A program made the translations under genes and the position numbers. A DNA stretch of 64,000 bases, from IMG/VR virus record IMGVR_UViG_3300042402_003740, positions 1 to 64,000 of that record; one strand, given 5' to 3'. The stretch is from a virus. The notes under the pieces are model-generated. The model saw only the letters and a list, made by a program, of their open reading frames with translations. It was not told where the DNA came from and did no database searches. This document shows positions 18,525-58,389 of this stretch, piece by piece (position 1 is the first letter of the stretch; each line of letters opens with the position of its first letter).

Positions 18525-18962
18525 TTATGATTTATTTCCTGCGGCGGCTGAACCAAAGTAGAAACCGATAATACTCAATAGAATTTGTCTGTTTTCTTGT
18601 GTGAACAGGTATCCATTAACTGTTTGGAATGCCACCTCTGTTGATTCTGGAATCAGACCAAACACCCATTCGGGATTTGTCTTTTCTACTTCTACAACCG
18701 TTGGTATGCCAAAGAATGGCAAGACAAAAGGTGCTGCAATAGTCCCAAACAGAACCATCAGCACTATGAGTTGTCTGACAGTTTTTCCTGCATCAACAGG
18801 TACTCGCTTTACGGCAGCATTTTGATTGTCATTTGTTCGCTTATTAGCAGTCAACAGACGATCAAACGCTTCTTTTTCGGCCTGACGCTTCTCAGCCATG
18901 TGACGGAAGATAAATCCCGTCGCACTTCCACCAATGAGTGTTATCAGTTCGGTTGGTATCAT
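18525..18962 (-). CDS. Holin-like multi-TM membrane protein
   Basis: N-terminal hydrophobic stretch, coiled linker, central TM, and C-terminal 'LLSIIGFYFGS' typical of 3TM holins. Confidence 0.6.
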   Translation of the reverse strand: MIPTELITLIGGSATGFIFRHMAEKRQAEKEAFDRLLTANKRTNDNQNAAVKRVPVDAGKTVRQLIVLMVLFGTIAAPFVLPFFGIPTVVEVEKTNPEWVFGLIPESTEVAFQTVNGYLFTQENRQILLSIIGFYFGSAAAGNKS

Positions 18963-20185
18963 TAGTTTGCCTCCTTGAATGGGTCTTTTGCGTTGAACCC
19001 ATCAAGTTCTTCCTTACGAATATTTGCTGCAAACTGTTCTAGACGATTCTTTGGAATCTTCAGACCGGAGATAAGCGTGTAAAGACGAAGTGTGGGCTTT
19101 TCGTCTTCGTAGATGCCACGGTGCAGAGTTGCACTCGGACATAGTGAAGACAGTGTATCGAATCCATAGGAAAGACTGTCCATCAATCCTGGTGTATTCT
19201 CCATTATTTCCTTGCCACCAACGGCGCAACAAGCAGCATAGGTTGCTTCTGAAATATCTAATTCTGCAAGCAAGGTCTTGTCTACATTAGACTTGATTGC
19301 TCCAGAAATCTTTGTTTCGTGTGCTGGTTCTTTTTTGTCACCATCACTTTTAACAGGATCGAGTTTAGAAACACCCATGACCATTGTTCCACCACAGCGA
19401 AGCACGGTTGCATAGTCTGTTGGGTCGAAAGAGGTATATGGGGAAGCGTGTTTAGAAAGCACATTGAAGATATGGAATAGTCCTGATACAGTATTGTTTA
19501 TAGTTGACCAGAACTCTTTGACTGTAAGATTCTTGTACATCTTTTCAATCTTTGAGTTATCAAGAATGATAAGAGGAGAGATCTCTTTCCGTTCTGCTTG
19601 TCCACCGACTTGCTTCAACACACGATATGCATTGAAGGAAACCTTTGGAGAGGCTGCTTCACCACGGGTGGGAAGAGACATCACAACACCTACACGCTCT
19701 TCTGGTTTGTCATGTCCGATGAACTTCATGTACTTCTTTGCAATGTCGATAAGCACAAGTGAAGATCCGCTACCGCTACCGCCTCCTGCACCAATGCAAA
19801 CCATAATGTGGTCAACTTTTGTTCCATATGTTTTACGCATAAGATCAAAAATCTGCTGCTTGTATTTCATAGCAGCAGATGCACCACGCTCCATGTCTTT
19901 TCCTGCTCCCTCTTCACCGATATCCAAGAGCATTTTCTGTGCAGCAGGAATGTCCAAGCGGTCTAGATCTTGTCTTGAAGTATTTACGGCAATGCACTTC
20001 TTGTAGCCACGGTCATAGAAAGCCTTTGCAAGACGACCTCCACCTTGACCTGAACCAATCCATGCAAACACATGGGAACCACCGCTTTGGTCTTCAACGC
20101 ATTGTTCCGTTGAATCTGGTTCCTTGTAGTCTTCTAACTCAAGATCGGGTATCTCTAGATCTGGTACATCTGGTAACTCATCCAT
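18962..20185 (-). CDS. Tubulin/FtsZ-superfamily GTPase
   Basis: GSGQGGGR (T1), AVNT, GAGKD (T3), GAGGGSGSG (T4 signature), LDN (T6), SFDPTDY (T7); acidic N-terminal tail. Confidence 0.92.
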   Translation of the reverse strand: MDELPDVPDLEIPDLELEDYKEPDSTEQCVEDQSGGSHVFAWIGSGQGGGRLAKAFYDRGYKKCIAVNTSRQDLDRLDIPAAQKMLLDIGEEGAGKDMERGASAAMKYKQQIFDLMRKTYGTKVDHIMVCIGAGGGSGSGSSLVLIDIAKKYMKFIGHDKPEERVGVVMSLPTRGEAASPKVSFNAYRVLKQVGGQAERKEISPLIILDNSKIEKMYKNLTVKEFWSTINNTVSGLFHIFNVLSKHASPYTSFDPTDYATVLRCGGTMVMGVSKLDPVKSDGDKKEPAHETKISGAIKSNVDKTLLAELDISEATYAACCAVGGKEIMENTPGLMDSLSYGFDTLSSLCPSATLHRGIYEDEKPTLRLYTLISGLKIPKNRLEQFAANIRKEELDGFNAKDPFKEAN

Positions 20186-22686: not shown

Positions 22687-25365
22687 TCACCAAGTTGCGT
22701 CGTTACCCTTATCTAGTAGAATCTTTTTGGTCTTAACATCTATGACTTGTAATCCAGCAGAAGTTGGACGAAGTTCAACAAATCTTCCACTAGACTTCAC
22801 AACAAATACTTCATCCCCCTGATACAACCTCTTCAAGACAACCATTTCGTATTCATCTCTCTTGCCCCATTTCTTTCCGTATATGGTGATAGGGGTCTTC
22901 ATGGGCTTACGATCAAAGATATCAAGGATTTCCTCTGCATTCTTTGTGTTTGCAGCCATAGCCTTTTCGGTCTTCTTCTCGGCTCCCTTTGCTGGAGTCT
23001 TCATTATGTTGCCAAAGCGGTCAGTCTTGCGCTTCTTCATGGGGTCGGCTGCACGGTCGTAGAATCCAGGAACCTCATCCTCTGGTACTTCTTCCTCATG
23101 CCAACCGTCTTCATCGTTCCACTTGAGGGTAACAGTCTTTTCTTCTTTGTTTCTGTCTACAATTTGTGCATCACGGGGAATTGTGGCTTCATCCAAGTCA
23201 AGGGACTCTTTCATGCCCTTCAGTTGCTCTTCGGCATCGGCAAGATTGTCCTGCCAGAACTGTATATCGTCTTCAGCCTTTTTTATGCTCTCTTTGCTCA
23301 AGCCAGCCTTTTTCAACATCTTCAGTTTCATCGTAAGAGACTTTATCTCTTCCTTTGAACCCTTTATGGCGGCTTTGAGTTCTGCACTCGAATGGACATA
23401 AGAGCCTTCGTCCAGTTCAACGGACTCCTTTACAAACTTTTTACCACGGCTGCTCTTGATGAATTTAGAGAACCAGGAGTATACATCTCCTCTTGGTGGA
23501 TATTCGTATTCCTTAAATAATTTCCTTCCGTGCAATTCTCCAGAAAGAGATCCATAACGATCTTCGTATTTAAGATATCCTACTTTCTTGCCATTCTTTA
23601 GTATAGGATACACACTTATGGTTTGTGTGCCTACTGTGCTGATTCGATCAAGTCCTTGTCTTTCGATATATTCGTGTCGTATTTCTGGCAAAGACAATTC
23701 ATATCTTGCAGTACCTTCATTCAGTTCAACGGACTCTTTCAAATCTCCATGAAAGGAGTGAAATGACACAAGAAGTTCCGAGGCTCCCTGATGGTGTTTT
23801 TTGTCACCATCAAAAAGTGGATTCACATTATTTTTAACTAAGATTGCTTGGATGCCTTTGATGGTTTGTTGATCTCTGATAGATGAACCGTATTCATTAT
23901 ACGCCTTGAGTTCTTTCCCAAACTTCTTCTTGAGTTCGGCTACAACATTCTTTGGAAGACTCTCTATCCAATCTTCGATAGATGCTTTAACTGCACCTTC
24001 ATTAATTGTTGCTTCATCCAAGTCTCCGTGGAAAGTATGGAAAGACATGATGATTGCCGAAGTTCCCTCGGCATGGTTCTTGTCTCCAAGGAGAGGCTTC
24101 ACCCTGTTGCGAACAAGAATTTGGCGAATCTTTTCACGGGTTGGATCGTCAATAACAATTGATCCACCCATGTCAGCCGCCTTCAATTTCTTTCCAAACT
24201 TGTTCTTTATCTCGGCTATGACTTTCTTTGGAAGATCGTAGAGCCAATCTTCTAGTGCTCCCTTCATTCCACCTTCGTTGAGTGCATCAACACCTTCCGC
24301 TAGACCGATCCCCATTGCTTTCTTGTAATGCCTTTCTGCCTCACTCATCAGGTGTCCAGTATCTTTAACAAACTTGTGGTATTGGGACTTGGGATTGAAC
24401 GACAACGCAAAGACATATTCAAGTGATGTCTCTGCCTGATTCTGATCGAACGGCAACTTCTTATTCTTTAGTATCTTGAAAAAATCATTGTAATCATACT
24501 TTGATGGTATGAACTGGGGTTCATCTTTTGCTTTGGAAAAGTAGGCTTCGCTGATAGGTTCACCCAAGCGGGTCTTTGTCCTGATGCCGTGACGCTTGTT
24601 GTACTGTTTCCATGCCACGCCATAGAGATAGGAAGCCCAATCATCACCGTAACGATCCTTGAAACTAGCCTTGGCTTTCTTCACTAGACGCTCGGACTTC
24701 TCGTCAGGAGGAGTTACTTCGTTTAGGAGTTCTTCGTTCACTTTGGCTTTCTTGGATTTCTTCTCTGGTTTCATTGGTCTTTCCAGTCCTTTTCTTATTG
24801 CATCAAATAGTTCTCTTGCTCCAGAGAACCCTGACGGCATACCCTTTTTGAATAGTTTGAAATCATTCTCGGCGGCGGCGGCACGGAGTTTTGATGCACT
24901 CATGCCCTCTACGCCCTCGGCTTCGGGATCACGCTTTCCTGCACTCACAACCTTGAAGTCCTCAAAGTTCAATCCTGTCTCGGGATCATCGCTGCCCAAA
25001 TACTGCTTGACAGTTTTTGTTATCTCTGGAACACGATCATCGCCTACAACTATATGAACGGTGGTGTATTTTTCTTTCTGAAGTTGATACAGGACACGCA
25101 TAAAGGTGTTTGTATCATTGTCTCCCATGACAATGTTTGCCTTTGGGAACATCTTTCGCATAAACTTGATCTTGTCACTGTACTGTAGTGGATTCTTTAT
25201 CGCTGCTTTTGGACGATTACCGTCGAATGATTGTGAGGCATAAATGCGGTGTTCTGCCCCCATCTTTTGGGCATGAGCGATCACGGCATTGATAAGTTTT
25301 TCATGCCCTATGGTTGGGGGCTGAAAGCGTCCAAATGTAATTACAACTGCTCTTTTTTTAGCCAT
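22687..25365 (-). CDS. Cytidylyltransferase-like (HIGH superfamily) domain fused to a chain of E-linker-separated modules
   Basis: FGRFQPPTIGH, VVGDDR, SAGKRDP...MSASKLR; then modules bounded by LLNE, ISE, LNE, INE, ESVELNE, ESVELDE, ESLDLDE. Confidence 0.8.
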   Translation of the reverse strand: MAKKRAVVITFGRFQPPTIGHEKLINAVIAHAQKMGAEHRIYASQSFDGNRPKAAIKNPLQYSDKIKFMRKMFPKANIVMGDNDTNTFMRVLYQLQKEKYTTVHIVVGDDRVPEITKTVKQYLGSDDPETGLNFEDFKVVSAGKRDPEAEGVEGMSASKLRAAAAENDFKLFKKGMPSGFSGARELFDAIRKGLERPMKPEKKSKKAKVNEELLNEVTPPDEKSERLVKKAKASFKDRYGDDWASYLYGVAWKQYNKRHGIRTKTRLGEPISEAYFSKAKDEPQFIPSKYDYNDFFKILKNKKLPFDQNQAETSLEYVFALSFNPKSQYHKFVKDTGHLMSEAERHYKKAMGIGLAEGVDALNEGGMKGALEDWLYDLPKKVIAEIKNKFGKKLKAADMGGSIVIDDPTREKIRQILVRNRVKPLLGDKNHAEGTSAIIMSFHTFHGDLDEATINEGAVKASIEDWIESLPKNVVAELKKKFGKELKAYNEYGSSIRDQQTIKGIQAILVKNNVNPLFDGDKKHHQGASELLVSFHSFHGDLKESVELNEGTARYELSLPEIRHEYIERQGLDRISTVGTQTISVYPILKNGKKVGYLKYEDRYGSLSGELHGRKLFKEYEYPPRGDVYSWFSKFIKSSRGKKFVKESVELDEGSYVHSSAELKAAIKGSKEEIKSLTMKLKMLKKAGLSKESIKKAEDDIQFWQDNLADAEEQLKGMKESLDLDEATIPRDAQIVDRNKEEKTVTLKWNDEDGWHEEEVPEDEVPGFYDRAADPMKKRKTDRFGNIMKTPAKGAEKKTEKAMAANTKNAEEILDIFDRKPMKTPITIYGKKWGKRDEYEMVVLKRLYQGDEVFVVKSSGRFVELRPTSAGLQVIDVKTKKILLDKGNDATW

Positions 25366-25407
25366 AAGATAACCTCGGTATTTCTTATCGTATATAGTAA
25401 ATAAGAA

Positions 25408-25435
25408 GGGGAGTCGATTTTTACTTCGACTCCCC
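25408..25435 (-). terminator. GC-rich hairpin followed by a U-rich tract on the minus strand
   Basis: ggggagtcga/tcgactcccc stem, then ttcttattt. Confidence 0.65.
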
Positions 25436-25491: not shown

Positions 25492-26745
25492 CTATACTTT
25501 CCAGTTTTTCGGCAAATTGAAATTCTTTCTTGAGAAATCTAGTCGATCTACGAGTTTATATGCACGGTTGTTCATTCGGTTCACCACCACGAACCCTTCG
25601 GGGGGTGACGCTGTATATGTTCCGTTTTCTTGTGTAAATGAATCTAAACGCATCTTGGTCCGGCGGAGCCTGTCTATAACCAAAAGTTTGGCTTGTGAAA
25701 TGAGGAGGTGCAAGGCAAAGAGGCTGTCGTATTTGTTAGAATTTGACTCTATAGAGTCTAGCAAGGCTTTGGCGGCGGCAGTTCTTGCTTGTCTTGCATC
25801 ATCCTTTTTCACACCAACAGCGGTCTTTTCTATCTTTTCTTTCATATAGGAAAGAAATCCGCTACTGGAGCCTTGTGCAACTCCCTGTCGCACATTCGAA
25901 TTTATGTATATCATTAGATCGTCCACAAGACCCTTACTTTTCTGTAAAGAGTCCAAGAATTTTGCAGATTTCGCTCCTGTTCTTTCTATTTTTGCAAGTA
26001 GTATCTGTATTTCTTTCTTTTCTAAGGGATTCGCAGGGAGAGAGCAGGAACCTGTACCATCAGATCCCCCCTGTAGATTTGCATCAATAATCCACGCAGA
26101 AGCATTAGACTTCAAGTATGATATGTCAGGAGCAAAAGAAGGCGATAGGCTTGCAATCGTATCACCAGTGTACTTTGTATGAAAAACAACACCCATTTTT
26201 GCCTTTGCTATCTCTTTACCGATAGAGGAGTCGGCAGGAATGGCATAGGTAAGGGTGTTTGGGCGAAATGTAAGGTATTTTACTCCGTGTATCTCTTCGG
26301 TTTTGAGATCCTCATTTGTGAAGAGCATATCTCCCTGAAGAATTCCACGAATTCCAGAGTTTTTTAAATTTTTCAGAGCAATCTTTAGTTTTTCATTTAG
26401 ACCAGGAACAGGGTGGTTTTGGTCTATGTCTTTTGGTGTATAATTTATCTTTGGAGTTTTATTGAAAAGAGACTTTGTGGCAACAAAAAACTTACCATTT
26501 TCAGGATTTATTCCAACAATAATGGCAGGAGCACCGTCAAATTTTGTTGTAACACAAAAAGAAGCCTCTGCTTCATCCGAAAGTTCCAATACTTGTCGTA
26601 AGTAATCTGTCGCTGTCTTTATGCCAGAGGAACCCTGTAAGAGTATTGTGTCTTCGATGTGGGTAAGATGGGTAACACCACCAGAAGCCTTGTCTTCGGC
26701 TTCCTGTAATAGCAGCGTTTCCCCAAATTTAGTAAATGATAGCAT
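25492..26745 (-). CDS. Conserved T4-like protein (DUF6267-like, nucleotidyltransferase/ligase-like motifs)
   Basis: THLTHIED, KFDGAPA, QGD, PEGFV, KLVDRLDFS; N-terminus MLSFTKF..LLQE; CTAAATA late box at 26767-26773. Confidence 0.7.
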   Translation of the reverse strand: MLSFTKFGETLLLQEAEDKASGGVTHLTHIEDTILLQGSSGIKTATDYLRQVLELSDEAEASFCVTTKFDGAPAIIVGINPENGKFFVATKSLFNKTPKINYTPKDIDQNHPVPGLNEKLKIALKNLKNSGIRGILQGDMLFTNEDLKTEEIHGVKYLTFRPNTLTYAIPADSSIGKEIAKAKMGVVFHTKYTGDTIASLSPSFAPDISYLKSNASAWIIDANLQGGSDGTGSCSLPANPLEKKEIQILLAKIERTGAKSAKFLDSLQKSKGLVDDLMIYINSNVRQGVAQGSSSGFLSYMKEKIEKTAVGVKKDDARQARTAAAKALLDSIESNSNKYDSLFALHLLISQAKLLVIDRLRRTKMRLDSFTQENGTYTASPPEGFVVVNRMNNRAYKLVDRLDFSRKNFNLPKNWKV

Positions 26746-26776
26746 ACGGTTCTCCTTGTATGCTTGTATTTAGTAA

Positions 26777-26849
26777 TGCACTTGATAGGACTCGAACCTA
26801 CACTAAGTAGAACCTAAATCTACCGCCTCTGCCATTGGGCTACAAGTGC
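26777..26849 (-). tRNA. tRNA-Leu(TAG), short variable loop, no encoded CCA
   Basis: Cloverleaf: GCACTTG/CAAGTGC acceptor, GTAGA-tt-TAG-gt-TCTAC, GTAGG-TTCGAGT-CCTAT. Confidence 0.85.
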
Positions 26850-26854
26850 TCAAG

Positions 26855-26928
26855 CGTCCCCGAGTGGATTCGAACCACTAACCTACGACTTAGAAGGTCG
26901 TTGCAATATCCTATTATGCTACGAGGAC
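26855..26928 (-). tRNA. tRNA-Arg(TCT)
   Basis: GTCCTCG/CGGGGAC acceptor, ACGAC-ct-TCT-aa-GTCGT, TTCGAAT T-loop. Confidence 0.9.
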
Positions 26929-27174: not shown

Positions 27175-30100
27175 ATGAGTAATTCTCTAAAAGTAAATTT
27201 GCAAGCATCACAAGGATTTAGTCCTTTTCCTAGATCTGTTCTAACTTCTGAATTTGCTCTATTTAGTGACAAATTTGGTGTAACTGAAATGGTTGATCTC
27301 ATCCAAGATCGAGCGATAGTTGCTTATCAATTTGACTCTCTTGACCAGAGTGGAGTTCCTGGATACCGTGGAATTAATTTTGGTCCTGGTATTGATCCAG
27401 GATTTCGTTGGTTATCATTTATAACAGGATATAGTGGAGGATTTACAGCCAATAATAATTGGGAATACCGATCAGCAGCAGCAGCAGCAGGAGTAACACC
27501 AGGAAGTCCAAATTGGAATACCGATTTCGGATGGGATCTTTGGCAAAAGGAAACAAGCATCAGCGAATGGTATAAGTGGGGAATTCGCAAATTTCACATA
27601 CACCAACCTTTCGGAAAAGTCACAAGAGGTGTATACGGTCAAACATCAGGCAGTAATCAGGCAACAATTAATGCACTTATTTCTGCTGGCAACACGCTAA
27701 CACCAGAAGCATCTGTTTATCAGATAGATTCATACCAATTGTGTCGTGATGGGTTTATTCATCCTGAAACAGGACACACTGGTAATATTCCTATGCCTTG
27801 GCTTACAAACGATGTTGTTGATGGAATAACACAAGGATTTGTTCCTCTTTTCAAGGCTCTTATAACAGGAACAGCAGGAGATCTTTCACAAGACACATGG
27901 ACACGGCTCACAGGAATTGGGGGTGCTTCTGCCTGGTACAATCCTGAAGATCCTATTGAGATTATAGCATACAATGGTGGTTTGAACTATGAGACTTATG
28001 AGAGGTGGAAAGCATACTTTGAGTCAGATCCTGAAACCGCTAGACGAAGACTTCGTGAATCATACGAACCTTTCGCAAGAGCAGGAATGCGTCTTGCAAT
28101 AGATGCACTTGTTGTTTCTCCTGGACCAGTTGTTGGTGAAAATGACTTGATGAGCGATGAGTACAAGTTTGTTTTCAGAGGAAGTGATAGTGATGACTGG
28201 AAACTAGTCAATAAACTAACAGGGGAAGAGGAACCAATACCACCAAGTGGGCTTGAGTTTCCAACTCCAATTTGGCGCACGACAGATTTCGCAAATAAAA
28301 AGATCTATGCACCTCCACTTGACTATAATGGTAATCCAATAGGAAAAGCAAGAGGTGAGACACTTGGTGGACAATTAGACCAAGAGTGGTGGTCGTTCTT
28401 CTCTGGACACATTGTTCCTACTTTTGGACAACATCGCATATATTCTGAAGCAATTCCTGATACTTCTATCATCAATGGTGTAGGAAAACCAAATCCATAC
28501 ATTGGTTTTAATACTATGGGATTTTCTGAATTTATCCGTGCAGGATTTGGAGGAAGAACAAGCGATACCCCATCAACTCCATATCCAACAGATCGTACTC
28601 GTTTCCATTATCTACGAGAACTTGGAGAAGTAGAAGTCGTTCACTCCCTTTCATTTGGTGAAGTTCCTTGGGTTGGTATAAGCGGTCCTAATGGGTTTAA
28701 ACCGGGATACTATTGGTTCTTGGAGAGATTTGGAAAAACAGAATCAACATCTGGTTCTGGTCTTCCTCCTCTAGGAGCAGGAGAAGTGTATCTTCGGACA
28801 ACTGTCACTCCAGGCTATGGAGAACAGATGTATATGGGTTATGTTGTTGCAGACCATTTACAAAAGTACTATACACATAATAATGATCCTACAAAAGTAA
28901 ACGAAAATAAAACCAAACACATGGTTATGTTTGCAGCACCAACAAAGAGAAAATTACCAGATGACATACTTGAAGCAGAAAGAGTCAAATATGGAGTGAC
29001 TCTTGACTTTAACCGCAGATTTCCAACAATAACTGAATATGCTAATTATATTGGTGCACTGAAGAACACCACACAGTCTCCTGATCCTGCAAATCCAAAC
29101 TATGGAATACCATCAAGAATTATAGACATAGAACCTATTGCTAAAGAATTTGCAGCAGAAGTAAGAGGTATGGAAACGGTTGATGGAATCGGAGGATCTA
29201 TACTGCTCTATGTTCAGTCATGGGACGCCTTTGCTGGTACCAAACTTTTTGGAATATCTGATGGACAGTTCTATGTTCCACAAGAAGATGTGGACATGGA
29301 AGAGACAAAGTTTAGAGATTGGATGGATACTGTTATCGCTTCTTGGATAGAGAGGTATGGAACCTATCCAAAGCATATAATATGGAATCTCACAGAATAT
29401 GGATTCTCTGGAAAAACTGGACCTCTGTATAACCGAGAGCCTATTGGATTTGAGATGGAGCGATACTTCTTTGATCCAGCAACACTTCCTTTTATTGCAT
29501 CAGATGAAGGTCGTGGAGAGATAAACTCCTATAGCACCAGAGGACTTCCCTACTATGGTTTGGATGGTCCTGGAATAACATGGGATTCCAGTCAAAATTC
29601 CGAGCGTTTCTACAGCAGAGGATATGATATTGCAAGGCTTGAAACAGCGGGAAAAGATCCTGTCGTACCAGCAAATCCACTCTATACAAGATCAAAAGAC
29701 ATTATTCTTGATATGATTGCAAAACTAAAGAGGTGGAGAACGGACCGTGGGATTCCCGCAAAGGTTGGAGTGTACCATGTACCTTTCATGCCTCGCTATC
29801 CATATAATGTGTATAAAGTGGAAGGAGTAAAGGAGAATTCACAAGCAGTCGTCTATGCTGCTGGTGGGTGGAATGATCTTGTCTGGCCAAAGCAGAGTAC
29901 AGTACATCCTTATGGTGTTGGTGGGTGGTATACGCCACAAGAAACAAGCGAACTAAAGAAAGTAGTCAATCTAGAATTTAGAAAAAGATGGGAACCGATT
30001 GTTAAAGAGTCTGAAGTGCTTTTTCCTGAATTGTACAATGACAGTTGCAGAGAGAACATATTTGAAGATGGTAATGTTGAGGGTTGGATAGAGACTCACA

Positions 30101-33100
30101 GAAAAGTAGTAGATCTTGCAAATGAATTCAAGACAATTCCTGCATGGTCAACAGAAGATCCAAATAAGGACAGCAACACAGAGGCTCCAGCAGGAGTGAC
30201 TGTCGATATTATACCTCTTACTGCCTATTCTGTTGTAAGACCTAACTGCGGTAGACTAGGAGAAGACGATCCTGTTGTAAAGAAAAACGGATCTCTCTAT
30301 GCACACGAAAACCAAGAGTATACTCTTACAGATTGGCTCCGTGACGAATATCTAAGACCAAAATTCAGAAGACCAGCAAAGGTTCAGGGACTCTCAATGT
30401 GGAGAGGGTTTGAATATAATGCAACAAATGCACTGTACACATCTTCTTATACTGGAAAAGAAGAAGACCGTGAATGGGTATTGAAATATATTCAGGCAGA
30501 AGACGGAAAGGGAGTAACAATTGACTGGAATAATCCTGTTGATGTGGACATAAAGTTTAGACGATATCTCCAAATAATCAATGGGCTAACCAGAAGATAT
30601 CTACACCGCTTTGACAGAGGAATTCCTCGTCGTGATATCCACCGACCATACTACCATGCTCCTTTTGCAGCAGGATGGAATCCTGGTATTTCCGCAGATG
30701 GATCTATGGCTAAACGATATCCAGAATCCATAGGTGGAATGCCAATACCTGATGTTGTTCCTCTCCTTTGGGTAGGCTATGGTCCATCAGGTCAGACTTT
30801 TAGAAATGCATCAAATACTGGTGGTGTCTCTAATGAGATACTTGCAGATGTTCGTGAAAGAGCAAGTCTTATACCACCAGGAAAAAGAGTCATTATGCCT
30901 TGGTATTGGCAAATCGAATCTCCTGCTGGTCAGCGTCCAATGATTGACTACTATGAGAATACAACAGATGGAATGGTTTATGGTGGTACAAAATACCGAG
31001 CACACGAAACACCAGGTGGCGTTACATTCCTCTCTCCTTGGGCTTACAATAATACAAGAGATGCAAAGAGTTCTATAACTGCTTTTCTACAACAGTGTGG
31101 TCAAACTGGCATATCTTTTGATGCGATTGGTTCTGATTTTGAGAATTGGGGTTGGCTAGGACTTTCTTCCGTTAATCAATCTTTTGATGGTCCTTGGGGT
31201 CCAACAGGAGAACCAGCAGCACAAAAAACGGTGACAATTGATGGCATTGATCGTAGTGTTGTTGTTCCTTGGAATGAATTGTACTCTTACTTGCAAGAAC
31301 CAGATAATCGAATAGCATCAACAATTGTAAAAGATTCAAGATTTGCAGGACTGACAAACTACACAACAGGTCTGTCAATGGGTGGTGCTATAGAGAAAGT
31401 CTATAATCAAATTAGACCATTTATGTCTACACTTGTTAATGGGTATGGTTATTCTAATCCTGGTAATGAAGATAATGGTTTGACTGCTAGTCAGATAATG
31501 ACATATTTTATCGTGGAAGGACCAACAGGAATTTCAGCAGCAACTGGTCCAGCATCAGTTGATGCTTATTATAATCCTGCGCTTCAAAACTGGCAAGCAG
31601 CAACAAGAGACAGAGGTCGTGAAATAGGAAATCCTTGGAGGCCACCATATACAAACAGCACATATCCTTTGGCTGCTGGTAAATCTGTCTCAATAAAACT
31701 TGCCTGGTTTGCATGGCAAAGAGCACTAGAATCTTTAGTACACGAAGACCACACACAGAGAAAGTGGGTTGACACTCTTCGTGGTAGTACAAGTAAAGAG
31801 ATGAGAAATGTGGAATTTGCAGAATATGATGCATTCCCTCTATCAGTTGGGGAAGGTGTATTCATTAGAGATCCGTATACGCATCCATTCTTGGCTTTAG
31901 GTGAGCAAGAGAACAGCGAGTACATTAACCCAAGTCCAGAACAGTATGGATCTATTTTAGCAGACAGTATAAAGACGGCGGTTTACTATACAAATCCAAC
32001 AACAGATGAACAAAAGTATATTATTACTATTTGTGATGCAGGGCAAAATCCACCAGCAGGAACTGTAAGATTCGCCCCATCTTTTGATATTACAGCAGCC
32101 AGAAGTTGGATTTCATTGCTCATGGAAGTACAGTTGATGAGAGGAATTCTTCGTACTGATCCTAGTGCGTGGTTGAACTATACTCCTTGGGTAAATACTC
32201 CTTGGGATAATCCTGATTACAATGGATTCTATCATACAATAGATCCTGTGAACACACCAGACATAGAAAGACGAACCTATTCGATTCAGTACTTTAGAGA
32301 ATTGGTTTTCCATGCTCTACTCCACGGAGCAAAGTGGTTCCATCTTTTCAATGACATTCCCGGTAATGGTGGACTTGGCCTCTCTGCAAGATATCAAAAC
32401 TTCTTGCAGGGAGTAACACTCATGCAGGGTATTTTCAATGAATGGAATTCTCTTACAAACTATAACCGTGTTCGTCCAGCATCGAATCCAACAGGAAACT
32501 ACAATGCTCTTGTTGAAAGGGTGAATCTTTCAGACGCAGGAGCAAATCACGAAGGAGCAACAGGAACACTTATAAGCGGTGCTCGTGTTCTGTCCGCAGA
32601 TTCTTTCGGACTGACAAGTAGTGTGCCATTCGGAGCAAATCCAAATGAAACCTACATCTGGAGAATATCTGTTCCTCCACAAGGAGTCGGTTGTACATAT
32701 GATCGTGTTGATATTCCAGGATTTGGATCAGCAACACAGGATCTTCCTCTAACTGTTTATGTGCCAGCAAATGAAACAGGATTCTGGATCAAGAGAACAG
32801 GAAATCCATATAAACCCCAATACCGTTGGAGAAAACCAACAACCGATGGAATGGGCACAGTACTGAAGAACAGGGACTCTAGTGCCATAGGTTTCCCCTC
32901 AACAAATCCTAACAGTGTGTTTACTGGTGGTGATAGTGATGCAACAATTGGAAGCGGTGCTAACTCTGATATTCGTGTCATTGCTGCATGGAAGAGCGAT
33001 CCAATACCCTTTGATAAGAGTACAGAAACAACAGTAACTATATGTGCCTACCATCCATCGGGTATACAGCGTGTAGAGGCTTCTCTTAATGGAGGATTAA

Positions 33101-35784
33101 CCGCATCAATTGTAGGAAACTCTCCTATAAATGATCGGTATCAGGAATTCACATTTGGTATTCCCCAAAATCTTCCGCAAACAACAGGGTTCCCAACAGG
33201 AACTCTCCATGAGATCCGTGCAAAGATATTCCCTGTTGAAGGAAAGCCCCGTATACTTGGAGGTCAACCGACAGACGCTTCGGTCTACTATACAGCGGCA
33301 ACATCTCTTATGAGAGTCGCTCCAACAAAAGAACAGGCAAATGAAACTTCATATTTCTTGTGCAATGAAAATCCACATGAAGTATCAGTTCTTAATAATT
33401 CTTGGGTAGTGAATATGGGAACTTCTCAGTATAGTGATTTGAGAAATGCAATACTTTTTGAATTAGGAAATCGCACAGGTTCCGATGTGTTAACAGAAGG
33501 TTCTGGAGGCAATAATTCCAATGGAAACTGGACTCCTTTCAACAGAAAGTTTGTAAAGATAAAAGTAAAAAATCAAACGAACTCAAATTTAAATATCCTT
33601 GGAGATCCTGGAACAGTTTCTGTTGGTGGATTTCTCTTTGTTGTGGATAGAAACGGTGCTCCAACTGGTTTATTTGATCCAACATGGAATCTGCTTGCAT
33701 CTTCATTTGATTTCTCGGGTAAGGCTCTAGTAATAGAGAGGGACTCTGGATCATCAACAACTCCAACAATGAAGGCGAGCACAACAGGAAACACAAATCC
33801 TCCTCCTCGTCCAGCAGGATTTTCCACAGCAGTTCCTGGTGCAAATCAACCGTTTAGCAATCCCAATTCTGTATATGCCATACCTCTAGGATTGTTTAAT
33901 CCTGGAAGTTTCGATGCATATTGCACATTTCAAAATAGAATATACAGATTAAATAAGAGCCTTGCGGATAGGAGTGGTTCATTTGAATTTGGTGGAGCAG
34001 GATTCACTCCTAATGAATTGTCTGCTCCAAGCGGGACAGACACAAGTAATTCCACATGGATATTTGAATCAGGTACAGGAGATTACGAAACAGCAGTTGG
34101 AACATCCAGAAGTGTTAATTGTCTAGGAGTAGGAAGAATTAAGTTCAAGAATGTTATAGTAGACCGTGGATCAGTATTGGAATTCTCTGGAAATAACAGG
34201 CTTCAATTCGATGGTGTAACTTTTACCTCATCACTACAGCCTCCAACAGAATCCAGAGTTATTGCAACAACACATATGGCTTCATTCACAGGATGTAACA
34301 TTGATGCTGATAATCCCACACGACATGGATTCAATGGAGCCAGAAGAGTATACGGTTGCAATGCGGCAAATATCTACACTGGAGCATTTATTGATAATCT
34401 CATGGTGCAGTCTTCTAGTGCAACAGGAGCACAACAAAAAGACAACAAGTCTGCTAATCCAATACTAAAGAGTAATTTCTCTCTCAAGAATGCAATCTAT
34501 AGTGATATCACAATTTCTGGATCTTCAGGGGAAAAACTACAAGAAGGTGTCTTGATAGGAACAGGTGGTGGGATAATATCTGGTGTACAGGGTGCTTGTG
34601 CAGACCATGAGGGATTGGTGTTCCGAAACATCTCTCTTGATTATGGGGCAATAAATGTTAGTCTTGATAAAAAGGGAATTCTTATAAACGGAAATGCCCA
34701 TCAAGTTTTCCTTGATGGATTGAGTTTCTCTACAGAATCGGTAAATATTGATAACTCCTACAAAGTGGTTGCCGATGCTCTGCGTACAGGTACTCCTCCT
34801 ATTAGTGGTTTTGGAGCAAAACCACAAAGAGTCTCTAGTATAGGAGGCACAAGAACTGCCGTGATCTTTGATGATCCTTCTATTCTGCTAAGACCGATTA
34901 TATTCGGACCAGAAGGCTCAACATTCTCTTCACGAAATTTTGCTGTTGGGGTCAATTACAACACTAATTTTGGAATAACCATGAGTTCTGTTCAAGAGAG
35001 TGTTCCGAATATTTCTGAAGCAAGAGCATATATCAGAGGAATACCACAAGTTACTGGAACAGGAGTTATTTCTAACAATAATTTTTCACTCTATATCTCC
35101 GGAATGGAGAGCAATGCTGCTAAAATTGGAGGAGTTGTTGGTTGGACTGCACCGTTTATCCAATCAACACTTTCTAACGGGACTGTTCTTGTAAATGTGA
35201 GTAGTGGACTAAATCCTGGAAATGTAATCACTGTTGGAGTAACTCTAAGCACATTCTATACACAGAGGTACATTAGTGCAGGACTAACAATTGAACCTGT
35301 ATCAGGAGCAACATTCCATGTCATGCCATCAGTATTTGATTCTACTGGCGTTTGGAGTGTGAGTAATGGAAATATTCCTATATCGCATTGGTTGAAAGTA
35401 GGAAATAATGGTGTTTCGTGGATTACAAATCCAACTACAACTGCCTCAATAAGACTAAAAATACGATCTCCTTTTTCTACAACGCTTACTGGAGATATCG
35501 GAAATCTAGTTGTGGGTCCGATACCAACTAGTAATACTTTGTTTATATTAGATTGGAATAGTCCAGGAAAAACAGGAGCGATTGTTGTTGGAGGAGAGAC
35601 ATACGGTCTTGGTACTGCTGCTGCCGCTCAAGAGAATGCAACAACCATAGCAAAAATACCAATACTCTGGACAACAGGACCGTCAGCAGGACAACCAATA
35701 TGGCCTGGTTCCACGGCAAATTTCCCTGATTTTAGCCGTGGATCTTGGAAAATCATCTATCCACAAGGTAGTCCTGTAGGATAA
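27175..35784 (+). CDS. Giant (2869 aa) multidomain virion-associated protein; possible glycan-binding or hydrolase domains and a C-terminal beta-helix
   Basis: Uninterrupted ORF; Trp/Tyr-rich N-terminal two-thirds; beta-helix-like periodicity (FKNVIV, FDGVTF, FTGCNI, FRNISL) near the C-terminus. Function is inferred. Confidence 0.6.
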   Translation: MSNSLKVNLQASQGFSPFPRSVLTSEFALFSDKFGVTEMVDLIQDRAIVAYQFDSLDQSGVPGYRGINFGPGIDPGFRWLSFITGYSGGFTANNNWEYRSAAAAAGVTPGSPNWNTDFGWDLWQKETSISEWYKWGIRKFHIHQPFGKVTRGVYGQTSGSNQATINALISAGNTLTPEASVYQIDSYQLCRDGFIHPETGHTGNIPMPWLTNDVVDGITQGFVPLFKALITGTAGDLSQDTWTRLTGIGGASAWYNPEDPIEIIAYNGGLNYETYERWKAYFESDPETARRRLRESYEPFARAGMRLAIDALVVSPGPVVGENDLMSDEYKFVFRGSDSDDWKLVNKLTGEEEPIPPSGLEFPTPIWRTTDFANKKIYAPPLDYNGNPIGKARGETLGGQLDQEWWSFFSGHIVPTFGQHRIYSEAIPDTSIINGVGKPNPYIGFNTMGFSEFIRAGFGGRTSDTPSTPYPTDRTRFHYLRELGEVEVVHSLSFGEVPWVGISGPNGFKPGYYWFLERFGKTESTSGSGLPPLGAGEVYLRTTVTPGYGEQMYMGYVVADHLQKYYTHNNDPTKVNENKTKHMVMFAAPTKRKLPDDILEAERVKYGVTLDFNRRFPTITEYANYIGALKNTTQSPDPANPNYGIPSRIIDIEPIAKEFAAEVRGMETVDGIGGSILLYVQSWDAFAGTKLFGISDGQFYVPQEDVDMEETKFRDWMDTVIASWIERYGTYPKHIIWNLTEYGFSGKTGPLYNREPIGFEMERYFFDPATLPFIASDEGRGEINSYSTRGLPYYGLDGPGITWDSSQNSERFYSRGYDIARLETAGKDPVVPANPLYTRSKDIILDMIAKLKRWRTDRGIPAKVGVYHVPFMPRYPYNVYKVEGVKENSQAVVYAAGGWNDLVWPKQSTVHPYGVGGWYTPQETSELKKVVNLEFRKRWEPIVKESEVLFPELYNDSCRENIFEDGNVEGWIETHRKVVDLANEFKTIPAWSTEDPNKDSNTEAPAGVTVDIIPLTAYSVVRPNCGRLGEDDPVVKKNGSLYAHENQEYTLTDWLRDEYLRPKFRRPAKVQGLSMWRGFEYNATNALYTSSYTGKEEDREWVLKYIQAEDGKGVTIDWNNPVDVDIKFRRYLQIINGLTRRYLHRFDRGIPRRDIHRPYYHAPFAAGWNPGISADGSMAKRYPESIGGMPIPDVVPLLWVGYGPSGQTFRNASNTGGVSNEILADVRERASLIPPGKRVIMPWYWQIESPAGQRPMIDYYENTTDGMVYGGTKYRAHETPGGVTFLSPWAYNNTRDAKSSITAFLQQCGQTGISFDAIGSDFENWGWLGLSSVNQSFDGPWGPTGEPAAQKTVTIDGIDRSVVVPWNELYSYLQEPDNRIASTIVKDSRFAGLTNYTTGLSMGGAIEKVYNQIRPFMSTLVNGYGYSNPGNEDNGLTASQIMTYFIVEGPTGISAATGPASVDAYYNPALQNWQAATRDRGREIGNPWRPPYTNSTYPLAAGKSVSIKLAWFAWQRALESLVHEDHTQRKWVDTLRGSTSKEMRNVEFAEYDAFPLSVGEGVFIRDPYTHPFLALGEQENSEYINPSPEQYGSILADSIKTAVYYTNPTTDEQKYIITICDAGQNPPAGTVRFAPSFDITAARSWISLLMEVQLMRGILRTDPSAWLNYTPWVNTPWDNPDYNGFYHTIDPVNTPDIERRTYSIQYFRELVFHALLHGAKWFHLFNDIPGNGGLGLSARYQNFLQGVTLMQGIFNEWNSLTNYNRVRPASNPTGNYNALVERVNLSDAGANHEGATGTLISGARVLSADSFGLTSSVPFGANPNETYIWRISVPPQGVGCTYDRVDIPGFGSATQDLPLTVYVPANETGFWIKRTGNPYKPQYRWRKPTTDGMGTVLKNRDSSAIGFPSTNPNSVFTGGDSDATIGSGANSDIRVIAAWKSDPIPFDKSTETTVTICAYHPSGIQRVEASLNGGLTASIVGNSPINDRYQEFTFGIPQNLPQTTGFPTGTLHEIRAKIFPVEGKPRILGGQPTDASVYYTAATSLMRVAPTKEQANETSYFLCNENPHEVSVLNNSWVVNMGTSQYSDLRNAILFELGNRTGSDVLTEGSGGNNSNGNWTPFNRKFVKIKVKNQTNSNLNILGDPGTVSVGGFLFVVDRNGAPTGLFDPTWNLLASSFDFSGKALVIERDSGSSTTPTMKASTTGNTNPPPRPAGFSTAVPGANQPFSNPNSVYAIPLGLFNPGSFDAYCTFQNRIYRLNKSLADRSGSFEFGGAGFTPNELSAPSGTDTSNSTWIFESGTGDYETAVGTSRSVNCLGVGRIKFKNVIVDRGSVLEFSGNNRLQFDGVTFTSSLQPPTESRVIATTHMASFTGCNIDADNPTRHGFNGARRVYGCNAANIYTGAFIDNLMVQSSSATGAQQKDNKSANPILKSNFSLKNAIYSDITISGSSGEKLQEGVLIGTGGGIISGVQGACADHEGLVFRNISLDYGAINVSLDKKGILINGNAHQVFLDGLSFSTESVNIDNSYKVVADALRTGTPPISGFGAKPQRVSSIGGTRTAVIFDDPSILLRPIIFGPEGSTFSSRNFAVGVNYNTNFGITMSSVQESVPNISEARAYIRGIPQVTGTGVISNNNFSLYISGMESNAAKIGGVVGWTAPFIQSTLSNGTVLVNVSSGLNPGNVITVGVTLSTFYTQRYISAGLTIEPVSGATFHVMPSVFDSTGVWSVSNGNIPISHWLKVGNNGVSWITNPTTTASIRLKIRSPFSTTLTGDIGNLVVGPIPTSNTLFILDWNSPGKTGAIVVGGETYGLGTAAAAQENATTIAKIPILWTTGPSAGQPIWPGSTANFPDFSRGSWKIIYPQGSPVG

Positions 35785-36169: not shown

Positions 36170-36170
36170 A

Positions 36171-36241
36171 TTCCCTTGCTTGGATTCGAACCAAGAAAAA
36201 GAGATCCAAAGTCTCTCGTGTTACCGTTACACTACAAGGGA
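36171..36241 (-). tRNA. tRNA-Gln(TTG)
   Basis: TCCCTTG/CAAGGGA acceptor; AGAGA-ct-TTG-ga-TCTCT. Confidence 0.9.
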
Positions 36242-36242
36242 A

Positions 36243-36332
36243 AGGAAGAAGTGGGATTCGAACCCACGGTAGACATCGAATGCCTACGCCGGTTTTCAAG
36301 ACCAGTGCCTTTAACCACTCAGCCATTCTTCC
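36243..36332 (-). tRNA. tRNA-Ser(TGA)
   Basis: CTGGT-ct-TGA-aa-ACCGG, long variable arm, TTCGAAT. Confidence 0.9.
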
Positions 36333-36337
36333 ATCAG

Positions 36338-36410
36338 TGGACTGAGGGGGACTTGAACCCCCAACCTCTGCCTTGCAAAGGCAGCGTTCCCCCAGTTGAA
36401 CTATCAGCCC
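36338..36410 (-). tRNA. tRNA-Ala(TGC)
   Basis: G3:U70 pair; CTGCC-tt-TGC-aa-GGCAG. Confidence 0.92.
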
Positions 36411-36414
36411 AGAA

Positions 36415-36496
36415 TCCGAGAGGCGGGACTCGAACCCGCAAGCCGAAAGGCAGCAGATTTTAAGTCTGCCGTGTATGCCAATTCCACCACTCTCAG
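36415..36496 (-). tRNA. tRNA-Leu(TAA)
   Basis: GCAGA-ct-TAA-aa-TCTGC, variable arm GCC-TTTC-GGC. Confidence 0.92.
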
Positions 36497-36499
36497 TCA

Positions 36500-36827
36500 T
36501 GGAGTCGGGGGGATTTGCACCCCCGTCCAGAACCACATCAAAGACAAACTTCTACGGAACCTAGTCCGTGTTCTGTACAGCATCGGGACACGGACATCCC
36601 TTTGCAGTTTGCGAATCGTTTAGTTCAACAGCCTTACGATTCCTATGGCAGTCTATCCGATGGTTTGGGAGGGGTAGATATCGGAGTCTCTACCCCTCCC
36701 TTGCCGCTTCAAGCAGCGAGACGAACTGTGTTAGCAGTTATTGTGTGGTCGATTTTATACAGAGCCGTTCGACCAACTCTGGTGCGCCGTTTGTCTCCTA
36801 CTTAGCCTGTCGAATCTACTCGACCCC
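36500..36827 (-). ncRNA. ssrA: tmRNA with tag (A)ANTVRLAA*
   Basis: 5' GGGGTCGA..GATTCGAC; 3' GACGGGGGTGCAAATCCCCCCGACTCCA with G3:U; resume context ATAACT|GCT; tag ORF 36735-36709 ends LAA-stop. Confidence 0.92.
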
Positions 36828-38799: not shown

Positions 38800-41700
38800 A
38801 TGGGAGCAATTATGTCATCATCTTCAGGACAGGGATTCACAGGCAGTATAGTAAACGGTTTACCCAATTATGTTCTTGCAGACCGCTCTACCATAGGTAT
38901 GGGCGATGGCGTGACAGGAGCAATACAGTATGTGAAAATTCTTTGGGGAGGCAGCGGAGAAGCCAATCTTGTAAGCGATAGCGCATCTGATCCTAGTGCA
39001 TTGCCTGTCAGTCTCAATACTCCTGAAAATTATTTCTTAACCGATGCTCTGATTAACGGTATGACCTATACCAATGGTGTGACTGCATTTGCGGTAAAAA
39101 TACTTGATGCAGCGGGATTGTGTCTAGGAAGTGTAAGTATAAGCCTTGGAGCAGGGTTTACTCTTGAGGCTGTTCGGAGCGGTCTTACTCTTGGGGTGAC
39201 ATTTGGAGCAATCACTGCTCCTGCTGCTGGTATTGCAATAAAGAACGCTGTTGTTGGTGGAGCGACACAAGCACTAGGAATCACAGGTTCTGTTTATGTT
39301 TTGGGTGGAACTGTTGCTGTAAGTGGATTAGACCTTAGTTCTTTGAGTTTTAGTAGTGGGTTAACTATTGCTGGTATATCAGCAGGGGTGACTCTACCTG
39401 TTCTCTTTTCTGGAGGAACTCTTGACGGTATATCAAATACAGTAGGAACTAGAATTAAAGGTATTGATGGGGGGGTTACATTTGCCGCTGTTCTGTACTC
39501 ACCTGGTGGTACATTCTTGGGAAGTGGTCTATGTGGATCACTGCTTGTATCTGGTGTGACAGGGGCAATCCCTGTCGGTGTGACTTTTGGAACCTTGACA
39601 AGTTTAACAGGTTCTATTAATATTCTAAACACTCCCACCGTAAAGATAGACTCTACTGATAATACGGTAAAGATAGCCTCTACTGATAATACGGTAAAGA
39701 TAGCCTCTAGTGATAATACGGTAAAGATAGCCTCTACTGATAATACGGTAAAGATAGCCTCTAGTGATAATACGGTAAAGATAGCCTCTACTGATAATAC
39801 GGTAAAAATCCAACCAACTTTGACCAGCACAGGCACAGCAGGACAGGCTGGTGGAGGAACAACATTTAACTCTGTATTGACAAATTTCAATGGTGTTCCG
39901 ATTGGCTATGATGTGTCTGGTGGAGTTGCAACATTCCGTGGATTCCCTGTGCATGGAGTATCTGGTGCAACTGCCATCCCTGTCCAAATAGTTGGCGGCT
40001 TGAGTGGTATTACTATTACGGGATTGGCATTCCCATCGTCATTTGCTGTGTCAGGTGGAACCTTAGCCGTATCTGGTGGAACACTAGGCTTTGTTCAGAT
40101 TGGCTCTATCTCTGGTGGAACAGTAAACATTGGAAATACTGTAACTGTCGCAGGAAGCGTGTCATTTAGCAATACTTCTCTTGATGTCAATGTGAGTAAC
40201 ACTGATGACGCAAATGCAATTGCAGTAGCACCTGTTTCTGGCTGGAAAGACTCTTCGAATACATCTCTCAAAAGCCATCTAGATGGTCTTACCGTTGCTG
40301 TAAGCGGTTTGAACTTTAGTGGCGGTCTTTCAATTGTTGGAGCAACGGCCATTCCTGTAGGAATTACAGTTGGATCAGGTGCAAGTGCATATGCCTTGGG
40401 AGGACTAGGAGTAACATTTGCCTCTATAACCATCTCTGGTACTCCACAAGTCTCTTTGAGTGCGGCTTCATCAATTGAGGTTGAAGGTTCCAGTAATTCT
40501 AGATTTACGGCTCCTGTTGGGGTTACGCTTAATGCTTTGCCGTTAGGTATTACAGCGGTCGGAATTTCTGGAGCAACAAGCAGTACTGTTCTTGGAGTTG
40601 GATTATACGGAAGAGGTATAAGTGGCTTTGTTCCTATTGGAGCGTCTGGTAATGCGCTAAATGTAACAGTTGTTGGCGGCTTAAGTGGAATCACTATTAC
40701 CGGTTTTGCATTCCCATCATCATTTGCTGTGTCAGGTGGAACCCTAGCCGTATCTGGTGGAACACTAGGCTTTGTTCAGATTGGCTCTATCTCTGGTGGA
40801 ACAGTAAACATTGGAAATACGGTAAATGTGGGCGGAAGCGTAACTGCTTCTATTAGCAATACCCGTGTTCCAGTATTCCTTGCCGATTCAAGCGGCACGG
40901 CGATCAGCAGTATAGATGCAGTTCCTGTGTTTGGATATGCAGGGGCGACTGCCTTGAGAGTTGTACTATCAGACCAACTTGGAACTCCTCTTGCTTTTGG
41001 AGCAAGTGGTGCTTCAGGAACAATCATTGGTGTTCCTGTTGTGGGAATCTCTGGAGCAACAGCAGTAGGCGTAACAATAGGGGGACCAATCGGTCTACGG
41101 GGAATATCTTTTGGAATGACATCAGGTGTAACCTCTATTGGTGTCCTCTTTACAAATAACTTTGGGGTTCCTCTTGGCCTATCGGGAGCAACTGTTGTTG
41201 GTATGCCTGTGTTTGGAATCTCTGGAGCAACTGCAATTGATGTGCGAATTGTTGCAGGAACATTCGGAGTAACTCTTAATGCAACTATCAACACTTCAGT
41301 AACTTTTGGTGCAACTCTTGGTGTTCGTATCACAGAGGGTTTCTCAACTGGCGCAACATCAGGTGTAACAGGGATTGGTGTACTCTTCGTGAACAACTTT
41401 GGGGTTCCTCTTGGCCTATCGGGAGCAACTGTTGTTGGGCTTCCAGTGTTTGGAGTCTCTGGAGCAACAGCAATAGGAGTAACTTTTAGCGGTGTAAGCA
41501 TCAGACCAGTGCTTGGAAGTAGTGGTATTGGAGGTTTGAGTGGTGGAGGAACTACATTCAATACAGTGCTTACAACTGTTGCAGGAGTTCCTATCGGTTA
41601 TGAGTTAACAGGTGGAGCCGCAATATTCCGTGGATTACCTGTACACGGAGTATCTGGTGCAACAGCAATTCCTGTTGAAGTTACTGGTGCAGGACTGAAA

Positions 41701-45547: not shown

Positions 45548-45904
45548 CTAGAATCTTCTTCTTTTTATTCTCTTGCCTATTCTTCGTGACCTTGCTGTTT
45601 TTCTGTTTATTGAGGCTTGCTTTCCTCTTCGCTTTCTAGCAGCCCTACGGAGTTTCATTTTCTTTCTACGAAGAACAGCGGCAGGAATACGACGAATTTT
45701 GCCTTTTACAAGAGTGTACCCTTTTCTTCCTGCGGTCTTGCCTCTCTTTATCTTTCCACCACGAACACGAATAATTCTTCGGACTCTCTCTAGAAGATAC
45801 TCACAATCTGCCTCTGCTGCTTCTAGAGTATCTTCAATGATACATTCATCATCTTTTTGAAGAATTTCTGCCTGTTCGAAAATGAAACTCTTGTATGATT
45901 TCAT
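45548..45904 (-). CDS. Very basic prohead-core-like protein (gp68-like) with a capsid-targeting-like leader
   Basis: MKSYKSFIFE leader, acidic propeptide ending LLE, then an Arg/Lys-rich 'RVRGGKI.R..GY...GK' region. Confidence 0.6.
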   Translation of the reverse strand: MKSYKSFIFEQAEILQKDDECIIEDTLEAAEADCEYLLERVRRIIRVRGGKIKRGKTAGRKGYTLVKGKIRRIPAAVLRRKKMKLRRAARKRRGKQASINRKTARSRRIGKRIKRRRF

Positions 45905-48198: not shown

Positions 48199-48449
48199 TG
48201 TCTTCCTTTCAAGTAGTTATGCACAGAGGAAAGATAATCTGCTGCCTTGGTGATCTTGGACTGTACCCATGCCTCAAGTTCCATATCTGAAGAGAGCATA
48301 TCCGATATAATACTGGCATGGTCAGAGATGTTCTTTAGTTCTCCCTTTGCCATATCTACTTCATCTCCAGGTGCATCACCTGTGGTGCTTGGATTTTCAG
48401 TCAGTATTTTGATAATTTGCTCTTGCAGCCGCTTGTTCTCATCTTGCAT
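48195..48449 (-). CDS. Small conserved T4-like helical module protein
   Basis: MAKGEL...LEAWVQSKITKAADYL; CTAAATA box at 48471-48477. Confidence 0.7.
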   Translation of the reverse strand: MQDENKRLQEQIIKILTENPSTTGDAPGDEVDMAKGELKNISDHASIISDMLSSDMELEAWVQSKITKAADYLSSVHNYLKGRQ

Positions 48450-48524
48450 AGGAAGCCCTCCGTGTATGTTTATTTAGGCTTTTTGCTAGTGAGGCGAGTT
48501 CTGTAATGTATTGGTGAAATGTTT

Positions 48525-50232: not shown

Positions 50233-50368
50233 CTGTTGCTCCTGAATTGATGTTTATTCAGGAGTATGTAGGCTTGGGCTATTCTATAAAAGGAGGAGAT
50301 TGCATACCATACCTCCCTGTATGTGTTTTCTAAATCCTATAATATCTAGGATTATTTGGATTTAGAGA

Positions 50369-51160: not shown

Positions 51161-51166
51161 TTTGTT

Positions 51167-54749: not shown

Positions 54750-54752
54750 GGG

Positions 54753-55972: not shown

Positions 55973-55973
55973 T

Positions 55974-57814: not shown

Positions 57815-57815
57815 A

Positions 57816-58265: not shown

Positions 58266-58389
58266 CCCGATCTCCTGTGTGTATTGCAGCCTTTTCCTAT
58301 ATGTATGAATACCCATTTTCTCCTCCAGAAACGGTTAGGGTTCCATTAGGAGGGTTAAAAAAGGCTTAAAAAAGGGGGTTGAGCGTGCA

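Follow-up and report, generated by a model that had tools for sequence, protein, structure and literature searches.

Gene A is a single open reading frame (ORF) of 892 aa at positions 22687-25365 (minus strand) of a 64,000-nt stretch of viral DNA (positions 1 to 64,000 of the 92-kb IMG/VR record IMGVR_UViG_3300042402_003740, hereafter the window), and it encodes a nucleotidyltransferase followed by an array of modules that are shuffled as whole units. Near-identical strains gain and lose entire modules with breakpoints inside the short conserved linkers that separate them, both in gene A and in gene B, a second gene of the window with which it shares one module. We propose by analogy, with a probability of about 0.6, that the products of these two genes belong to a pool of head-cargo proteins of an uncultured T4-like freshwater myophage, built from small modules that fold independently, which would be packaged into the prohead, cut at their linkers and injected as separate modules.

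A first-pass annotation of the window, made from the sequence alone, had described gene A as a cytidylyltransferase-like domain followed by about seven modules, and the ORF, its Pfam and PHROG matches and a count of seven units (M1, M2, M3a, M3b, M4, M5 and M6) bear this out. The catalytic domain (CT; aa 1-200, 24766-25365) is followed by M1 (aa 201-274, 24544-24765), a constant helical unit, then by a variable cassette array composed of M2 (aa 275-364, 24274-24543), the helical M3a (aa 365-455, 24001-24273) and M3b (aa 456-548, 23722-24000), M4 (aa 549-653, 23407-23721) and the helical-hairpin cassette M5 (aa 654-726, 23188-23406), and finally by M6 (aa 727-892, 22690-23187), a constant beta-rich C-terminal domain, all on the minus strand. 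M3a and M3b are indeed the tandem paralogs that had been noticed (52% protein identity, E about 1e-28; 72.5% DNA identity over 102 nt). M4 is the module that had been seen to recur in an otherwise unrelated gene, that is, gene B (residues 542-653 of A against 75-175 of B, 45% identity, E 2e-25). The similarity between A and B is confined to M4, and these two copies are the only ones in the 92-kb record. Gene B itself (324 aa, 55974-56948, minus strand) consists of a leader (aa 1-12) ending in L-D-E/A, an N-module, a linker, the M4 copy (56424-56699, minus strand), a second linker and a C-module.

The linkers that had drawn attention as conserved ESVEL(D/N)E-type peptides are found on the minus strand at three junctions of gene A, that is, linker 1 (M3b/M4, 23713-23739), which reads K-E-S-V-E-L-N-E-G and is a double [LIVM]-x-E-[GAS] site and candidate recombination joint, linker 2 (M4/M5, 23404-23430), which reads K-E-S-V-E-L-D-E-G, and linker 3 (M5/M6, 23185-23211), which reads K-E-S-L-D-L-D-E-A. 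A scan of all six frames finds five copies of their strict motif, E-[ST]-[VLIM]-x-[LIV]-x-E, three of them in A and two in B, and this holds for the window as for the entire 92-kb record. Across the family, the element common to junctions is the shorter [LIVM]-x-E-[GASV], which is often doubled, and nearly all junctions are brief acidic linkers with one or two [LIVM]-x-E-[GAS] sites. In gene A, 12 of the 13 motif sites fall at its seven junctions, which shows the presence of the motif and not cutting. The density of [LIVM]-x-E-[GASTV] is 18-fold higher at junctions than in module interiors, which are poor in the motif (21 observed against 40.8 expected by shuffling), these statistics being drawn on related sequences so that their P values are inflated and serve as a guide only.

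The relatives of gene A carry the main finding. A word-indexed search with residues 200-892 returned 37 proteins, to which DNA loci from viral and metagenome collections were added, and an exhaustive HMMER scan with the middle region against 1.84 billion representatives returned 59 proteins only (110-987 aa), among which gene A modules occupy every position. A test set beforehand asked whether module content varies in relatives with breakpoints at linkers, and it does, with 25 architectures in 39 full-length CT-family proteins, built from about 20 middle-module families, and with insertions and deletions whose breakpoints fall within linkers. All members of the CT family begin with CT and M1 and end with M6, while the middle varies from 1 to 5 cassettes in no fixed order (there are conflicts for M3/M5, M3/N5 and M3/N1, M5 or N5 standing before or after M3). 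The claim that modules are swapped between carrier genes is supported as well, since cassettes are also found in many other carriers and in single-module proteins with a T4-type capsid-targeting leader. M3 is the commonest cassette and is found in many carriers, M2 is present in P0074-76, P0095-P0100 and P0037, and the last of these, which has no M1, sets M3 and M2 between quite different ends.

Comparison of close relatives shows where the joints are. Locus L004 matches gene A at 99.5% identity along the first 1652 nt and is without M4. The 26 nt at its junction can be aligned with linker 1 of gene A as well as with linker 2, and an extra 98-aa module (N10) is inserted at linker 3. At the protein level, P0003 is 98-99% identical to gene A and has neither M4 nor M5, the two ends being joined by a hybrid linker. 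The gene B family shows the same module variation, as in P0039, in which the N- and C-modules are 98-99% identical to those of gene B and M4 is gone exactly between the two linkers (again at the protein level). About 9 of the 16 nucleotide differences between gene A and L003 lie within or beside linkers, and this clustering suggests exchange there. In L085, M5 is 95% identical to that of gene A in DNA, against 89% for CT, 84% for M1 and 81% for M6, and on these identities it appears to be a cassette that has recently moved between diverged backbones. We judge it highly unlikely that all this variation is an artefact of metagenome assembly across short repeated linkers: although the relatives all come from assemblies and the linkers are repeats of 15-26 nt, the repeats are inexact and fall below the usual length of final k-mers, while the variants are all in frame, recur in independent samples and diverged backbones, and hold novel modules that are not in the window (e.g. 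N10 and N7).

What the junctions preserve is a peptide. The motif is kept at each junction of gene A, including CT/M1 and M1/M2, across lineages that are 50-60% identical and in which the codons have changed, which indicates selection on the peptide. Judged by its sequence, the junction motif [LIVM]-x-E-[GAS] equals the consensus of the T4 gp21 prohead protease, which cleaves after Glu (PMC5694885) and whose logo is fitted by L-I-E (PMC9026906). The reading of the linker as a protease site thus gains independent support from sequence, and the putative protease can be named as gp21-type. The phage is itself T4-like, with a gp43-type DNA polymerase about 50% identical to cyanomyovirus enzymes, and the record also encodes a gp26 baseplate hub, a tail-tube protein and gp2.

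The same grammar is seen at the N-termini of neighbouring proteins. In T4, the 10-residue capsid-targeting leader of IPIII directs targeting through residues 4 and 7 and processing through residues 8 and 10, and an Asp at position 10 prevents processing (PMC9026906). Taking a leader as about 10 residues with an aromatic residue at position 4, a hydrophobic one at position 7 and [LI]-x-E at 8-10 or slightly later, we found one in seven genes of the record (0.75 expected, P 1e-5). These include gene B, genes of 149, 347 and 118 aa, the DUF6267 gene (25492-26745, minus strand, directly upstream of A), whose leader ends in L-Q-E/A, and the 289-aa gene (56945-57814, minus strand, upstream of B), whose leader is very T4-like (M-K-R-Y-R-Q-F-I...I-L-E/S). 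Both upstream neighbours of B are among them. Nine further module carriers from other assemblies also have a T4-type leader, including P0115 (leader and M4) and P0101, and leader and linker therefore look, at the sequence level, like interchangeable module borders. Directly downstream of B, a 277-aa gene (55139-55972, minus strand) contains seven [LIVM]-x-E-[GAST] sites where 1.5 would be expected, and its module following L-H-E matches the mature start of P0101, where a leader precedes the module; its product is probably another cargo polyprotein.

Further support comes from the transferase. Its homologue in cyanophage S-CREM2, gp154 (32% identity to the gene A domain, E 2e-22), starts with a perfect leader, as does the homologue in S-RIM8, and mass spectrometry of purified virions identified S-CREM2 gp154 (PMC10665884). 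The gene A domain passes the membership threshold of PF01467 (CTP_transf_like, 23.6 bits for a Pfam cut-off of 21), has an HxGH motif in the form T-I-G-H together with an S-x-S-K-L-R motif (S-A-S-K-L-R), matches PHROG 'cytidyltransferase' families (E 9e-52) and shares 48% identity with the 'cytidylyltransferase' of T4-like cyanophages. The fold is NadD/NMNAT-like, the nearest Foldseek matches being NadD/NMNAT (E 3e-5) and then PPAT (E 4e-4). A search of PDB sequences with the domain gave zero matches, it fails the family model of NMN/NaMN adenylyltransferases (NadD/NadR/NadM; TIGR01526, 15.8 bits for a cut-off of 341), and in an NCBIfam scan all matches were far under their cut-offs. The enzyme thus appears to resemble NMN/NaMN adenylyltransferases in predicted fold only, as the sequence models of NadD/NMNAT enzymes are not satisfied.

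A different protease might be at work. The linkers could be cut outside the capsid, by another enzyme, a host protease or themselves, in what would be a cytoplasmic polyprotein, and a 781-aa gene labelled 'peptidase' (PHROG 459, 59611-61956) does adjoin the block of leader genes. This is improbable: the 781-aa protein is without a Pfam match to back its label, no module resembles an autoprotease, and the motif together with the leaders fits the gp21 system specifically.

Several results weigh against the head-cargo proposal, and the first of them concern the linker DNA, which the first-pass annotation had held to be conserved along with the peptide. Part of this stands, as there is a 15-mer found exactly at 23413-23427 and 23722-23736, with 3-mismatch variants at 23194 and 56430, and the pair formed by linkers 1 and 2 of gene A exceeds codon-usage expectation in codon identity (6/8 against 3.1, P 0.035, uncorrected for the 10 pairs compared). 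It is the only pair to do so, and the linkers of A and B show no such excess although their peptide is identical. The excess of synonymous-site conservation predicted for linker codons was essentially not seen, and we rejected selection on the linker DNA itself because the synonymous-codon test found no robust excess. The conserved entity is therefore the peptide, DNA-level conservation being weak, and the 6-26 nt of DNA homology at recombination follow from it as a by-product. Accordingly, the idea of the linker as recombination micro-homology survives insofar as breakpoints do lie inside linkers, and loses the part that would have DNA sequence selected for this role.

The modules themselves give few clues. 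In an AlphaFold2 model, full-length gene A protein looks like beads on a string (predicted template modelling score 0.30), with confidence dropping at residues 198-217, 266-270, 449-465 and 720-727, which are all junctions. Modelled alone, M4 forms a five-strand sheet with two helices (predicted local distance difference test score 76). When PDB and BFVD were searched for folds like this model, no match fell under E 0.04. Searches of ESM Atlas with M3a and M6 likewise yielded no usable lead, as the HGD-D matches (0.86-0.88) were under trust level. Pfam and PHROGs identified no Pfam family among gene A modules and a single marginal PHROG match (E 0.002).

The remaining difficulties concern delivery. 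A leader was sought at the N-terminus of gene A and none was found, the protein beginning directly with its catalytic domain. We considered, and rejected, an upstream extension that would hide one, since that frame is interrupted by a stop and contains a hairpin resembling a terminator (25408-25435, minus strand, between the DUF6267 gene and gene A; the hairpin is GC-rich, 10 bp long and trailed by a T-rich run). With no leader and a closed upstream frame, gene A would need another route into the head, and the short motif, whose statistics are inflated as said above, could have come along with modules from leader-bearing proteins and be uncut in A. Neither gp21 (PF03420, Peptidase S77) nor gp23 (PF07068) was found in the 92-kb record, which is 43% complete; the presence of T4-type gp43, gp26, tail tube and gp2 leads us to expect a gp21 homologue in the missing part of the genome. 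The window contains no copy of the canonical T4 late promoter, TATAAATA, which leaves late expression putative.

These difficulties feed the chief rival explanation, in which gene A would be an uncut multidomain enzyme whose cassettes act in binding or regulation and anchor the transferase to one partner or another, with linkers that serve as flexible joints and recombination points, their likeness to protease sites being a relic from leader-bearing cargo modules. Besides the missing leader, it would explain why the constant ends, CT+M1 and M6, always stay together as if working in one polypeptide, and there is a precedent in polyvalent proteins that can function unprocessed, such as the N4 virion RNA polymerase (PMC5512222). 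We nevertheless consider it rather unlikely, because it does not account for a motif that is maintained at each A junction through extensive divergence and codon change, for the depletion of that motif in module interiors, or for homologous transferases that are leader-bearing virion proteins.

Under the head-cargo proposal, gene B and its neighbours would enter the prohead core late in infection by virtue of their leaders, a gp21-type protease would cut after the Glu of each linker, and the freed modules would be internal proteins injected with the DNA, like IPI-III and Alt in T4. The payloads would probably be host-takeover or anti-defence factors. Since each module would end in the same peptide, and hence in similar DNA, short-homology recombination between linkers would yield new combinations that are in frame and correctly processed, which would explain the shuffling. 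Whether the linker truly has two uses, its peptide being a prohead-protease site that frees modules in the capsid and its DNA a recombination joint for domain-level shuffling akin to exon shuffling, seems to us an evenly balanced question. If it does, payloads would move freely among single-module leader proteins, cargo polyproteins and a packaged NMNAT-like enzyme, and the roughly 20 orphan modules would form a reservoir of anti-defence or host-takeover factors.

Several other features surround these genes. The DUF6267 protein is probably a functional partner of gene A, to judge from gene context, since DUF6267 is fused to the transferase in PHROG 455 of other phages and adjoins it in cyanophage S-RIM8. 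The window protein has a K-x-D-G motif as in ligase-type nucleotidyltransferases, and a literature search found no papers for DUF6267 or 'cytitidyltransferase'. Two genes downstream of the transferase homologue of S-RIM8, a gene (L125:6643-7749) that starts with M-L-S-F, like the DUF6267 leader of the window, contains an E-E-T-E-L-D-E-A stretch, and the linker grammar may therefore extend to marine cyanophages. Gene A and the DUF6267 gene share a T-A-C-T-A-[A/T]-A-T-A-C motif some 25 nt before each start (25385-25395 and 26762-26772, minus strand), which may be a variant late promoter; a C-T-A-T-A-T-A variant is found again at 59006, heading the leader-gene block. Most leader genes are grouped in this block on the minus strand within 45548-58316, the DUF6267 gene standing apart, and the block further encodes an AdoMet decarboxylase (54753-55142) and a NadM-type Nudix protein (51167-52891). 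A second conserved N-terminus, with I-L-A-E/A at about residue 12, is found on M2/M3 carriers (P0076, P0079, P0091, P0094, P0096, P0108 and others) and may be an alternative targeting leader. Elsewhere in the window are six tRNA genes and a tmRNA gene (tag ANTVRLAA) at 26777-26928 and 36170-36827 (minus strand), a tubulin/FtsZ-family GTPase (PF00091, E 3e-11; 18962-20185, minus strand), here in a T4-like phage, and two very large ORFs on the plus strand, of 2869 aa (27175-35784) and 1531 aa (38800-43395), a PHROG scan of the latter giving zero matches.

If the head-cargo proposal is true, it would have several implications: (i) a leader together with [LIVM]-x-E-[GAS] linkers would be a simple sequence rule for finding injected effectors in uncultured T4-like phages, (ii) about 20 new candidate effector domains would become available and (iii) a protease site would be seen to set the grammar of domain shuffling. 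A putative packaged NMNAT-like enzyme beside a NadM-type Nudix gene also hints at NAD-related early warfare.

How does this locus compare with known systems? The cytidylyltransferases of T4-like cyanophages (S-RIM8 gp184 family and S-CREM2 gp154) have a homologous catalytic domain (32-48% identity) and, in S-RIM8, a DUF6267-like neighbour, but they are proteins of 286-385 aa with a leader and no cassette array, whereas gene A has no leader and seven extra units. Polymorphic toxins, such as CdiA with its VENN motif and Rhs proteins with their core motif, also have a short conserved peptide at the border of swappable cassettes, which is thought to serve both recombination and processing. These systems are bacterial, swap their C-terminus only, are paired with immunity genes and form no many-cassette arrays, unlike the arrays described here. 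In head proteins of the giant phages phiKZ, 201phi2-1 and SPN3US and in the T4 scaffold gp22, several prohead-protease sites per protein are cut after Glu, and tandem sites in propeptides represent a built-in redundancy (PMC5694885; PMC9026906). There, propeptides are removed and discarded, whereas the pieces here look like folded modules, and the set of them is combinatorial. Polyvalent proteins (Iyer et al., 2017; PMC5512222) carry many effector domains, are predicted to be packaged and delivered with DNA and show extensive mosaicism, processing having sometimes been proposed, and they share with gene A the multi-module single polypeptide and the mosaicism. A regular cleavage-type linker has not been described for them, the word 'linker' being absent from that paper (PMC5512222). 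Gene A does not belong to this class, as Pfam and PHROGs identified none of its hallmark domains (MPTase, ParB/DdrB, ArdC, methylases, helicases) in gene A, and its modules are instead orphans of 50-180 aa.

The most instructive comparison is with the internal proteins of T4, which are the classic injected anti-host-defence proteins of phages and are encoded by separate small genes sharing only a targeting leader. IPI, IPII, IPIII and Alt have a leader, are cleaved after Glu and constitute a small and diverse injected cargo, encoded in the case of the IPs by a hypervariable locus (PMC3012670; PMC9026906; PMC4122927). The leader pattern, here seen on gene B and its neighbours and not on gene A, the Glu cleavage motif and a cargo set that is reshuffled between related phages are common to both systems, and the conservation of the leader alone between otherwise unrelated cargo proteins in T4 is a further likeness. 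The differences are that the units here are chained in one polypeptide, separated by copies of the cleavage motif, that they are inserted inside an enzyme as well, and that domains are shuffled within genes, whereas in T4 whole genes are shuffled between promoter-terminator cassettes. Taken together, this comparison suggests that the locus is a variant of the T4 internal-protein system, in which cargo domains are chained in polyproteins, bounded by a protease site and reshuffled at it.

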